This document shows positions 12,685-16,026 of a stretch of 64,000 nt of DNA, one piece after another. The translations under genes were made by a program, and so were the position numbers. The notes under the pieces were generated by a model. The model worked only from the letters and a program-made list of their open reading frames with translations, searched no databases and was not told where the DNA came from. The stretch lies in IMG/VR virus record IMGVR_UViG_3300027736_002225. One strand, 5' to 3'. This stretch comes from a virus. The stretch's first letter is position 1, and every line of letters starts with the position of its first letter.

Positions 12685-13158
12685 TTAATCTTTAAATTCG
12701 TTATCTTCTCTATGTCCTACACGCATTGCCATGTTAGCATCAGTTTCTCTTACTTGCACTTTGCAACACCATACACGATCCTTTTCACCATAGTTAGGTA
12801 AGAAAATTGTGTTTATGTATTCATAAAGAAAATCGGCAATGCCCTCACATCCAGTCTTTTCAACTTCTGTAATCTTTGCTAATTTTAATGTGCCTAGATG
12901 CAATAGATGTTCTCGCATTGGATCATCCTGTGCAACTAACAATGTGTGGTCAAACCAGTCTTCAAGTAGACCTTTAAGTGGTTTTAGTCCACCAAAGTCC
13001 ATACACCAATTGCGGGCATCTAATGTATCACACTCAAATTCTAAATGGAATGAAAGTGCATATCCATGAATTAAATTGCAATGACTATCTGCACGCCATT
13101 GTCTATATGCTACGGGACCAATCTGATTATAAGTTTTTGTAGAAATGTATTTTGCCAT
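12685..13158 (-). CDS. queD: 6-carboxy-5,6,7,8-tetrahydropterin synthase
   Basis: Motifs HCNLIHGY, MDFG, FDH and GCE; clustered with folE and queE. Confidence 0.9.
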   Translation of the reverse strand: MAKYISTKTYNQIGPVAYRQWRADSHCNLIHGYALSFHLEFECDTLDARNWCMDFGGLKPLKGLLEDWFDHTLLVAQDDPMREHLLHLGTLKLAKITEVEKTGCEGIADFLYEYINTIFLPNYGEKDRVWCCKVQVRETDANMAMRVGHREDNEFKD

Positions 13159-13227
13159 GTTTATTCTCCTATGTTATCATAGGCGGCGGAATTTATAAAG
13201 CGGGACGATGCCGGTAGACCGCTATGT
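13159..13227 (-). ncRNA. Candidate cis-regulatory RNA (preQ1-I-like pseudoknot plus RBS hairpin) in the queD leader
   Basis: Stem AGCGG/CCGCU; loop CGGC complementary to downstream GCCG; A/U-rich linker; hairpin CCUAUG-AUAA-CAUAGG covers the start of the AGGAG RBS. Confidence 0.55.
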
Positions 13228-13232
13228 GATAT

Positions 13233-13261
13233 ATTATATATTACTTAAACATAGCGGTCAA
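13233..13261 (-). promoter_or_regulatory. Sigma70-type promoter for queD, overlapped by an 11-bp inverted repeat
   Basis: TTGACC-17 nt-TATAAT; inverted repeat GACCGCTATGT (13217-13227) / ACATAGCGGTC (13249-13259). Confidence 0.75.
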
Positions 13262-14314
13262 TACATTAGCAGAAAAGAATTTTTCCGTTAAGTACGATGC
13301 TTGTTTGCGAACGTGATACTTATATTGATCGTGATTATTCATGTATTGAACAATTTTATAACATAAGTCTTGTCGATGCACTTCGTATGCTTCAAATGAT
13401 TCTGTCCATTCACTAGGATATTTGAACATATCATTGTACATTTCCGTATAGGATAAACGATCTGGCACCATAGGAATAGCATCTACAATGGCACCTTCGT
13501 AACAACTAATACCCAATGTTTCTTGTAGGTTTGCACTAAATACAATCTTAGCACGACCTAGCAGTTTGTGATATTCATGTTTATCTAATTGCGTATCTTG
13601 ACAAACAACAAACTCATATTGAGGTAAATGTTTAGCCAAGTCTCGGAAAATTTCAACTTGTTTTTCTGGTGCAAGTCGATGAGGGAACAAAATTAATTCG
13701 CGCTTCGGAGTTGTATTATAGTTTTCTAATGTGTCAACCATATATTCCATCGGCCAACCTGAGCGAACAATCTTACCTTGTTCAATCATAGTGATCTTCC
13801 ATTCGTCATCCACTGTTTCGCTAAATGTCTCAGCAAACAAATCAATATGAAAATCAGTAGCAAAATAGTTATGGTCAATAGCGTGAAAGAAACTTTGTTC
13901 GGCATGTCTCACCCAAGGAGCATCTCCAATGAGACGACCTAAAAAGTCTTGAGGATCATAACTGCCAGCGTGCCATAGTGCGTGAATAGTTACAGGAATC
14001 TGTAACAGCTCACTCATGTATTTTAAATTAATAATGCCAGGATGCCAAGCGTCAGTAAATAGAAAGTGATCACCAGCATTAATGGATCCGCTACAAAACA
14101 GGCGACCCATCTGCTCAACTTGACTAGATTTGTATATATTAGTCCCGCCAAAATTAAGGAAAGCACCAGGGGTAGTAACACTAGGAATATTAGTAGGTCC
14201 GCATATAACTTCAATATCCGCTGTCTTTTTAAGTAATTGGGGTACATGATATTTCCATTGTTCAGTGTATCGTGTGTCTACTGCCTCTAAATCAACAATA
14301 AATATTTTAGCCAT
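13241..14314 (-). CDS. GT-B glycosyltransferase (GT4-like); likely start at 14314 (MAKIFIVDLE)
   Basis: FPHRLAPEKQ and LQETLGISCYEG (EX7E-like), PDRLSYTEM; start coupled to the upstream stop codon. Confidence 0.75.
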   Translation of the reverse strand: MAKIFIVDLEAVDTRYTEQWKYHVPQLLKKTADIEVICGPTNIPSVTTPGAFLNFGGTNIYKSSQVEQMGRLFCSGSINAGDHFLFTDAWHPGIINLKYMSELLQIPVTIHALWHAGSYDPQDFLGRLIGDAPWVRHAEQSFFHAIDHNYFATDFHIDLFAETFSETVDDEWKITMIEQGKIVRSGWPMEYMVDTLENYNTTPKRELILFPHRLAPEKQVEIFRDLAKHLPQYEFVVCQDTQLDKHEYHKLLGRAKIVFSANLQETLGISCYEGAIVDAIPMVPDRLSYTEMYNDMFKYPSEWTESFEAYEVHRQDLCYKIVQYMNNHDQYKYHVRKQASYLTEKFFSANVLTAMFK

Positions 14315-14729
14315 GTGTTTGTTCAAAGTGAATTCTGCAACCGTTTTCGCCATCTTCTGATACTTCAATTACATAAGCACGTCCAGGCCATTTTGCAATT
14401 AATTTATCATATAGATCGTTTGCCATCATTTCACATGATTTATAATCCAATTGTAATGTGCCATCGCTATACCAGCGCTCCATAATTCTTTTTGCTTGAA
14501 TAAATTCAACATCTCGATTGTCATGAAATACTTCCATTTCGACCCGAAAATGGAACATATGCCGATGGCGATCTGCAAGAAAACTTACATCAAGCCAATG
14601 ATCTTCTGGGACTCCAAATCGACGTGTTGCCAATGATGGATCTGTTGCGGCATCGGGGTAACGATGAATGCCTTCTTTCTGAAAGGTAACCCAAATAAAA
14701 CTACTCTTTTTAACAATACTAGTATTCAT
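14307..14729 (-). CDS. dpdL: QueD-paralogous T-fold protein, DpdL-like
   Basis: LADRHRHMF matches LxxxHRHxF; also RDVEFI, SCEM, EVSEDGENG; adjacent to dpdA; RBS AAGGA before the ATG at 14729. Family assignment is from memory. Confidence 0.65.
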   Translation of the reverse strand: MNTSIVKKSSFIWVTFQKEGIHRYPDAATDPSLATRRFGVPEDHWLDVSFLADRHRHMFHFRVEMEVFHDNRDVEFIQAKRIMERWYSDGTLQLDYKSCEMMANDLYDKLIAKWPGRAYVIEVSEDGENGCRIHFEQTHG

Positions 14730-14739
14730 AATATAATCC

Positions 14740-16026
14740 TTATGCAAATAAATTTTCTAATGACATCCGAGGCTGATGGCTTACAGATTCAGATTCCATA
14801 TATTTACCAACGTGCTTTTCCCAATGAGAAAAGTCTCCAATATCTTTAACTTCAAACAATGTAGCATACTCATTTTCGCAACCCTTATCTCTACAAAATC
14901 TAAGTAACTCGTCTTTAGATTCTAATAGGGTTGTAACATCAAGTGTGAAATTATGCACATTTGTCAATATGAAACAAAGACGTGCTTTCATAATGTCAAT
15001 AAACTTGCCGCCATTTTCAAGATACTTACCTACAGCAATGTTCATTAATTTATGATATTCTTCTGGAGTATATTCGGTACCACAAACACTATTGATTTCA
15101 TCTACAACTGTTCTATAGATGTTAGAATATTCTCTGCCCATTTTTACAGATGAGCCGCCATAACCATGTCGTGTTTTTTTACTATACGAGAAATAAAACA
15201 ATCCATTATCTAATGACATTGAATGTGTTGTAGAATCATAAGAGATTTCAATGTTCTCATACATTCCAGTCTGACTAAAAACCATATAGGGAAGCATACG
15301 ACGCAGTGCGCCTACCCCTAGAATGTGAAGATGAAATGGTTTCTTAAAGGGCATTACCTTAACATAGAATGCTCGTTTAACATCTTCAAGTTGCCCAGTA
15401 CCTAGTGCAGCAGATGCCATTGACACACCGCCGATACGATCATGATATGGTGCAGTGATTTCTTCAAGTAAAATATTTGCCCACTCAGCATAAGTCTCAT
15501 GACAAGCACCTTGAATGATTGCGAAAGGTCGACAATCACTTTTCATTTCAATAAACTTTTCAATCTGAGATTTAATATTTTGTCCCGTTTGCTTGGCATA
15601 ACTAGCAAAATTATCTCGGTCAAAATATCTACCCTTAGTATCAAGCTTTGCAGACTTGCCACTTGCATTAGTAATTATTACTGGGATCTCATCAAAGGAC
15701 ATTCCAATGTCTGCATGGGATGCTTGATTCTCATAAACGCTATTACGAACTTCTGGCGAATTAGGAATGCCACGTGTAATAATTTGCAGACCGCCAGAGT
15801 CGGCATGTATATTTTTAATCGCGGGTCTAAATTTTTGTAGACGTTTTCCAAATTGTTTTTCAGTAAACCCGTTATACAATAATGAGAACTGATGATTATT
15901 CATATTATGAACAGTCTTACCAATAAGGTCATTGATCATCTGCAATACTGCAGGATCATTACATTGTTCTGCACCAAGACGTAAGTACGCCGGTCCAGAA
16001 ATTACATATTCCATCTGTCTGCTCAT
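14740..16026 (-). CDS. dpdA: TGT-family 7-deazaguanine DNA transglycosylase (DpdA-like)
   Basis: TGT motifs ADSGGLQ, MSFDEIP, IIQG, HILGVG, SYDSTT; no CxCxxC zinc site of bacterial tRNA TGT; clustered with folE/queD/queE. Confidence 0.8.
   Translation of the reverse strand: MSRQMEYVISGPAYLRLGAEQCNDPAVLQMINDLIGKTVHNMNNHQFSLLYNGFTEKQFGKRLQKFRPAIKNIHADSGGLQIITRGIPNSPEVRNSVYENQASHADIGMSFDEIPVIITNASGKSAKLDTKGRYFDRDNFASYAKQTGQNIKSQIEKFIEMKSDCRPFAIIQGACHETYAEWANILLEEITAPYHDRIGGVSMASAALGTGQLEDVKRAFYVKVMPFKKPFHLHILGVGALRRMLPYMVFSQTGMYENIEISYDSTTHSMSLDNGLFYFSYSKKTRHGYGGSSVKMGREYSNIYRTVVDEINSVCGTEYTPEEYHKLMNIAVGKYLENGGKFIDIMKARLCFILTNVHNFTLDVTTLLESKDELLRFCRDKGCENEYATLFEVKDIGDFSHWEKHVGKYMESESVSHQPRMSLENLFA

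Follow-up and report, generated by a model that had tools for sequence, protein, structure and literature searches.

The leader of the queD-like gene in the window (the whole stretch of 64,000 nucleotides analysed here, which comes from an uncultured freshwater jumbo phage) is probably a phage-restricted, cis-acting translational switch, most likely belonging to a new class of metabolite-sensing riboswitches. The leader and its relatives contain covarying structures that overlap one another, and these structures are associated exclusively with queD. The predicted aptamer consists of a 5-bp stem (P1), an L1 starting with N-C-U, a short L2 ending in an invariant C and a 10-nt A-rich L3, while its second helix (P2) would begin with a P2a of variable length (3-7 bp) and continue, past an invariant U.C mismatch, into a P2b of 2 bp. 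In the proposed OFF state a hairpin or an anti-start helix would hide the ribosome-binding site (RBS), and in the ON state the pseudoknot would free it. The trigger is proposed to be a small molecule, which would turn on QueD synthesis by stabilising the pseudoknot.

The element is located on the minus strand at 13227-13159, immediately 5' of the QueD-like open reading frame, and its parts and neighbours in the window are as follows.

13233-13261, minus strand: sigma70-like promoter, TTGACC, 17 nt, TATAAT (11 of 12 consensus matches)
13219-13223, minus strand: 5' strand of P1, AGCGG, pairing with 13199-13203
13213-13218, minus strand: L1, conserved N-C-U and then a spacer of 0-9 nt across the family (alignments A2 and A3)
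13206-13212, minus strand: 5' strand of P2, with GGC of P2a at 13210-13212 and C-G of P2b at 13206-13207
13204-13205, minus strand: L2 (UC), with the invariant C13204 directly 5' of the P1 3' strand
13199-13203, minus strand: 3' strand of P1, CCGCU, the partner of AGCGG
13189-13198, minus strand: L3, A-rich linker of 10 nt, in which three A's and the final UC are invariant
13182-13188, minus strand: 3' strand of P2, the switching sequence, with C-G of P2b at 13187-13188 and GCC of P2a at 13182-13184
13168-13183, minus strand: RBS-occluding hairpin of 6 bp, CCUAUG-AUAA-CAUAGG, covering AGG of AGGAG
13166-13170, minus strand: Shine-Dalgarno (SD) sequence AGGAG, 7 nt 5' of the AUG at 13158
12685-13158, minus strand: regulated gene, QueD-like T-fold protein of 157 aa with CxxxHGY (Pfam PTPS, 3e-15)
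14307-14747, minus strand: second T-fold protein, LADRHRHMF, with the LxxxHRHxF signature

Within the P2 5' strand, positions 13208-13209 hold an internal-loop A and the family-invariant U, and the 3' strand holds the invariant mismatch C at 13186 together with C13185. C13183 and C13182 are common to the P2 3' strand and the SD hairpin.

The sequence is as the preliminary description of this DNA had given it, with a 5-bp AGCGG/CCGCU stem on the minus strand, a 15-nt P1 loop in which U is first and C is last, an A/U-rich linker and, later, a G+C-rich stretch. The promoter-proximal start of the leader was likewise found, the predicted transcript start from TTGACC-17-TATAAT being 1-3 nt before P1. 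This promoter is confined to the window phage and its closest relative (L001), and most relatives carry an upstream open reading frame in its place. The leader had been called unusually GC-rich, and the GC content of the aptamer is indeed 53% versus 34.5% for the window, within the top 1.5% of 49-nt windows. The 6-bp hairpin said to follow the pseudoknot and to hide the RBS is also present at 13183-13168. No intrinsic terminator or attenuator was found near the leader. The minimum free energy of the single sequence is unremarkable against shuffled sequences (z = -0.62), so that the element can be recognised as real only by comparison with its relatives.

The pairing of CGGC (13213-13210) with GCCG (13187-13184), from which the pseudoknot had initially been drawn, is complementary as claimed, but the register of the family is different: GGC pairs with GCC (13212-13210 with 13184-13182), C-G and G-C pairs are added (13207-13206 with 13188-13187), and a 2x2 internal loop is enclosed between them. 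The CGGC/GCCG pairing is an alternative register specific to the window, of similar energy (-5.0 versus -5.8 kcal/mol), which occupies the otherwise invariant GC. In the family register P2a of the window is weak, with 3 bp followed by an A.C mismatch. The pseudoknot is predicted to arise from either register.

A search with the QueD protein gave 487 viral contigs, from which the 80 best loci were kept. In the upstream regions of these 80 loci the motif is visible before queD with compensating changes, and the covariance model R1 found exactly one match, on the queD strand, in 66; the remaining 14 have unrelated upstream sequence, the element being absent. With R1 the window copy scored 53 bits, typical members 57-63 bits and the next best match in the 64 kb 13.6 bits. 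IMG/VR was then scanned with one pattern for each form of a conserved UCYGC block (U-form and C-form), giving at least 120 matches each, most of which passed a P1-pairing filter with a chance pass rate of about 7%. Besides the QueD-anchored set (alignment A1), 123 distinct aptamers among the matches listed were aligned as A2, and 84 distinct aptamers among the matches listed, with both UCYGC forms mixed, were aligned by the model as A3.

In the alignments of 123 and 84 aptamers, 92-93% of the cells were paired versus 33-54% with the partner slid, and none of 500 shuffles reached the score, although the P1 statistics are inflated and its 100% pairing is partly a product of selection, because the instances had been selected for P1 pairing. 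P1 alternates between GC, CG and UA at pair 2 and between CG, AU and UA at pair 3, and it was recovered independently by RNAalifold. P2 played no part in selecting the instances, and its cells were 84-88% paired versus 33-54% when slid. For P2a in A2, 84% of the cells were paired (33-51% with the partner slid by 1-3 columns), and each of the five pairs varies in both partners (as many as six pair types). In an alignment-free test, the cognate duplexes between loop and 3' strand showed a mean energy of -5.29 kcal/mol versus -3.61 kcal/mol for permuted duplexes (0 of 1000 permutations).

The P2 helix is extended by a conserved UCA in the loop opposite a conserved UGC that precedes P2a; the invariant U.C mismatch follows P2a, then an invariant C-G pair, and then a pair that is either A-U or G-C. 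The scans had fixed only the 3' base of this last pair and left its 5' side unconstrained, and in A3 it is G-C in 44 distinct sequences, A-U in 40 and unpaired in none; the window has the G-C form (G13206-C13188). A2 contains 73 G.U cells, which would read A.C on the opposite strand, and the pairing therefore belongs to the RNA of the queD sense strand. The C just 5' of the P1 3' strand (column 28, C13204 in the window) is invariant in A1 and A2 and also in A3 (84/84, partly fixed by the search pattern). The base after P1 is variable (A 39, U 33 and C 12 in A3). Conservation and covariation among homologous leaders, the lack of which was to count against the preliminary description, are both present, and the H-type pseudoknot that it proposed for the queD leader is conserved and covaries in the homologues. 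As judged from these alignments, the leader is a member of a large RNA family kept via compensating changes by hundreds of related phages.

The P2 3' strand can also pair with the SD sequence or with the start codon, and the SD is 12-40 nt farther downstream. The aptamer is conserved, and it is joined to platforms of three types: a hairpin over the SD, a helix over the start codon (anti-start) or one over the SD (anti-SD). The 61 type-a variants include the window, and in their leaders the last two C's of P2a form the base of the SD hairpin; in the window this 6-bp hairpin has an energy of -5.4 kcal/mol, which becomes +0.5 kcal/mol once P2 takes its two C's. In type-b leaders (62 variants), the switching strand and the next 2-4 nt pair over 6-9 bp with the start-codon region, and in some cases with the SD. 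Perfect anti-start or anti-SD matches of 7-8 bp occur among them (for example, L019 and L097), and the cognate type-b duplexes have a mean energy of -9.00 versus -7.80 for permuted ones (0 of 2000). In a third platform, seen in the C-form group, ACUCC pairs with GGAGU.

Since the P2 3' strand is shared with the RBS-occluding helix, the pseudoknot and this helix are mutually exclusive. The general design of riboswitches, a covarying aptamer joined to a variable and mutually exclusive expression platform, is thus present, with one aptamer using at least three RBS-occluding platforms and always the same strand. The pseudoknot state is the state with a free RBS, so that whatever stabilises the pseudoknot turns translation ON, and on this model folding of the pseudoknot should turn QueD translation ON. 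The energy of P2 is about that of the competing helices, and a few kcal/mol from a ligand would suffice.

The QueD-like protein encoded by the regulated gene matches phrog_2389 "QueD-like" (1e-40) and scores 35 bits with TIGR03367 versus a cut-off of 89. The canonical QueD motif is CxxxHGH (PMC10516641), while this protein and its relatives carry CxxxHGY and all stay far below the NCBIfam QueD cut-off; the regulated enzyme may not be identical to textbook QueD. The upstream genes of the same strand include queE, folE and those for a 3'-5' exonuclease and a distant Tgt/DpdA-like protein. Two upstream open reading frames are without family matches, and the one adjacent to the leader resembles phage glycosyltransferase genes. 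Downstream of queD are an Mre11/SbcD-like gene, an SbcC-like gene and a peptide deformylase gene. The LxxxHRHxF signature of the second T-fold protein has been proposed for the CDG decarboxylase DpdL (PMC10516641).

Among the large motif-bearing contigs searched, a DpdL-like gene was found in five of five and QueC in none of five, and among five motif-lacking relatives QueC was clear in G009 and G010 and marginal (a 24-bit match) in G007, with DpdL in G006 and G007, the comparison being one of a small sample of incomplete contigs. The absence of QueC from the five large motif-bearing contigs fits with preQ0 and preQ1 not being made by these phages, in agreement with the earlier claim that the visible pathway cannot make preQ1. 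Taken together with the DpdL-like signature, it points to 7-deazaguanine, which is perhaps further modified by the products of the two flanking glycosyltransferase-like genes.

Among the matches listed, 161 of 163 downstream open reading frames are QueD homologues, and in the exceptions, L182 and L192 (also L067/L073), a short inserted open reading frame is followed by queD. There is one copy of the motif in the 64-kb window and one full copy in each of the five contigs of 125-264 kb, and a model search of the window gave no extra copies before folE, queE or dpdA. These five contigs are 36-71% complete by CheckV, which at their length implies jumbo-size genomes. When 185,579 species genomes were scanned with a strict pattern, four true instances were detected (L203, L223, L233 and L237), all on contigs of 4-8 kb from metagenome-assembled genomes (MAGs) and before queD-like genes. 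Their bins, three of Bacteroidota and one of Nitrospira, probably contain mis-binned phage fragments, and the Bacteroidota bins give a weak hint of a Bacteroidota host. The motif is absent from the closest cultured QueD relatives (Acidovorax ACP17, Xanthomonas BUDD and Dinoroseobacter R26L), two leaders had no blastn match among 50,697 phage records, and no close relative of the window was found among deposited phages. By these searches the motif is lacking in deposited (GenBank) phages, is almost exclusively present in viral contigs and always stands before queD. A second, truncated copy (P1 and loop, 20 bits) was observed about 600 nt upstream of the full copy in two loci (L027:2309-2335 and L028:2309-2335), and it may be a recombination remnant.

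With Rfam 15, no family reached its gathering score in the window or in 20 relatives and none matched in the four motif-holding MAGs, the sole matches being noise, miRNA and sRNA models at 10-17 bits. The Infernal search against the Rfam preQ1 models, suggested as a check in the preliminary description, gave no match to preQ1-I, -II or -III. RF00522 (preQ1-I; gathering threshold 39 bits) gave no match even at E <= 10 when stretches 401, 116 and 96 nt long were searched, nor in any of these MAGs, while the B. subtilis control matched. Class I preQ1 riboswitches are H-type pseudoknots with a P1 of 5-6 bp, an A-rich tail and a specificity C (PMC10622847). The outline of this architecture, which the preliminary description had assigned to the leader, stands. 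As in preQ1-I (RF00522; types I-III, for example, those of B. subtilis, T. tengcongensis and E. coli), the pseudoknot is small and of the H type, P1 has 5 bp, a C is conserved 5' of the P1 3' strand (as far as its presence is concerned), the linker is A-rich and able to lie in the P1 minor groove, and the control is translational and concerns a gene of the queuosine/7-deazaguanine pathway. The P2, the UCYGC block and the ON logic depart from it. The short P2 of preQ1-I (3-4 bp) is entered from the A-rich tail, whereas that of the queD leader has 7-8 layers with a U.C mismatch and is preceded by the invariant UCYGC block, which separates P2a from the A-rich part; its L1 is variable and longer than that of preQ1-I. 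The P2 3' strand of preQ1-I holds part of the SD (OFF), whereas that of the queD leader is anti-SD or anti-start (ON). Unlike preQ1-I, the queD leader has no other gene context than queD and is essentially restricted to phages that lack QueC. Because of the failure of the covariance model, the long interrupted P2, the UCYGC block and the reversed logic, we do not file the leader under preQ1-I; it resembles this class in outline and is not a demonstrated member.

A true but divergent preQ1-I member sensing preQ1 or preQ0 would account for the matching topology, the 5-bp P1, the A-rich L3, the que-gene context and the invariant C at the position of the preQ1-I specificity C. We consider this very unlikely, because RF00522 finds no match in the window, the 20 relatives or the four MAGs, the 7-8-layered P2 with its mismatch and the UCYGC block have no counterpart in preQ1-I, the base after P1 is variable, the anti-RBS P2 3' strand reverses the logic, and the five large contigs lack the QueC needed for preQ0 and preQ1. 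More serious, though still improbable, is a protein-binding translational operator, in which QueD or a co-programmed phage protein would shift the balance between the pseudoknot and the RBS helix as gp32 does. Phage leader pseudoknots that bind protein are known, an example being that of autoregulatory T4 gene 32 (cited in PMC10690425), and such autoregulatory leaders of T4-like phages set a precedent for this possibility. What the T4 gene 32 leader shares with the queD leader is an H-type pseudoknot that precedes a phage gene and controls its translation. The strict link to one gene suits autoregulation as well as metabolite sensing, and the unpaired bases could as well be conserved as contacts for a protein. 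The gene 32 leader, however, is bound by its own ssDNA/RNA-binding product, whereas the queD product is a T-fold enzyme, for which no RNA binding is known to us. Also against an operator, the regulated proteins fall below 45% identity (for example, the L136 group) while the aptamer is nearly constant, a compact, pocket-like fold of 45 nt before a biosynthetic gene is the usual signature of a riboswitch, and the queD pseudoknot, unlike that of gene 32, competes with an RBS-occluding helix.

The position of the upstream open reading frame bears on the proposal of a ligand-independent device, such as a folding timer, a thermosensor, or an mRNA-stability or translational-coupling element. In most loci its stop codon lies 2-25 nt before P1, and in 11 it is inside the aptamer; sequestration of a downstream RBS by upstream sequence is, moreover, a common design for coupling. 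The stop position nevertheless spreads from -51 to +32 (counted from P1), no upstream open reading frame is near in 14 leaders, and the window aptamer begins at a promoter-proximal 5' end. Coupling would not call for a pseudoknot in which some 15 unpaired or mismatched positions are invariant, and a device of this kind is thus less probable than the operator, if not quite so improbable as preQ1-I membership. Least credible of all is a chance structure or a DNA-level site (operator or inverted repeat). The unremarkable folding energy and a perfect inverted repeat of 11 bp at the -10 box would agree with it, but it is contradicted by the strand-specific covariation with many G.U pairs, by the hundreds of homologues, by the alignment-free test and the covariation in A2 and A3, and by the left arm of the repeat not being conserved even in L001. 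A recoding pseudoknot (frameshift or read-through) was considered and rejected, given the same spread of upstream stop positions and the presence of the SD and AUG of queD itself.

Another of the closest known systems is THF-II (the folE motif), in which a conserved C and a conserved U within a stacked helix hold the ligand between them, be it a pterin, 7,8-dihydroneopterin or 7-deazaguanine (PMC9881143). THF-II likewise controls translation of the gene for an enzyme of the same GTP-to-pterin pathway, folE (PMC9881143, PMC6800512). By analogy, the invariant U.C between P2a and P2b could act as a C/U pocket of this kind. Unlike the queD leader, THF-II is a hairpin with an internal loop, an OFF switch and bacterial, and neither the window nor its relatives, in which the topology is that of a pseudoknot, match it at the Rfam gathering score. 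The putative ligand would be seated at the P1/P2 junction next to the invariant C, or else between the invariant U and C within P2.

Concerning the identity of the ligand, ON switches usually answer to a substrate or to a compound due for removal. For this reason the QueD substrate, 7,8-dihydroneopterin (tri)phosphate, or a related pterin, acting by feed-forward, is ranked as the first candidate. A guanine-like or 7-deazapurine base (guanine, CDG or 7-deazaguanine) would come second and preQ1 last. ON logic with an end product of the pathway would be an unusual positive feedback, which also shifts the guess toward a substrate-like ligand. A fuller reading, possible but doubtful as a whole, is that a phage-exclusive, uncatalogued class senses a pterin or 7-deazapurine of the DNA-hypermodification pathway, possibly through a C-ligand-U layer, and turns QueD ON; metabolite supply would then gate the commitment of GTP-derived pterin to 7-deazaguanine DNA.

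The 7-deazaguanine pathway replaces guanine in phage DNA, evading restriction. To our knowledge, phage-borne riboswitches are rare and the known ones are copies of bacterial classes. Glutamine riboswitches, for instance, are a rare feature of phages (PMC9004378). The queD motif, with hundreds of variants that nearly all come from viral contigs, stands at the committed step of the pathway. Should a ligand be confirmed, the motif would offer a pterin- or deazapurine-binding aptamer with a new fold and an ON-type relative of the smallest riboswitch architecture so far known, as well as the first evidence of metabolite sensing by phages in the control of DNA hypermodification. Its size of about 45 nt makes the aptamer amenable to rapid biochemical and structural tests. 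We found no paper on the queD motif or on a phage queD riboswitch; the main text of Fremin et al. (2023) does not mention the motif, which may be present as an unnamed entry in its supplement.

Some minor features of individual leaders were also observed. In the window, a perfect 11-bp inverted repeat (13217-13227 and 13249-13259) stands astride the -10 box. The right arm coincides with the 5' strand of P1, and the left arm falls within the -35 box and the final codons of the upstream open reading frame. L001, with a QueD 100% identical to that of the window, has four differing bases in the left arm and hence an imperfect repeat; elsewhere the left arm is absent. Because the left arm is not conserved, the repeat is specific to the window genome and outside the family, and it was rejected as the main feature. 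In read-through transcripts, the repeat could block P1.

Among type-b leaders there are 11 loci (L011, L019 and nine others) in which the upstream open reading frame reads through P1 and the loop and stops within L3, so that terminating ribosomes must unfold the aptamer there. TATAAT or TAAAAT is present in the hairpin loop of 49 of the 61 type-a leaders, preceded at a distance of 17 nt, within L3, by TTTACA or TATACA (for example, L002:2808-2880 and L023:2930-3003). Such a near-consensus sigma70-like promoter inside the aptamer would yield queD transcripts without the aptamer. The window is without this embedded promoter, its own promoter being located upstream of the aptamer instead.
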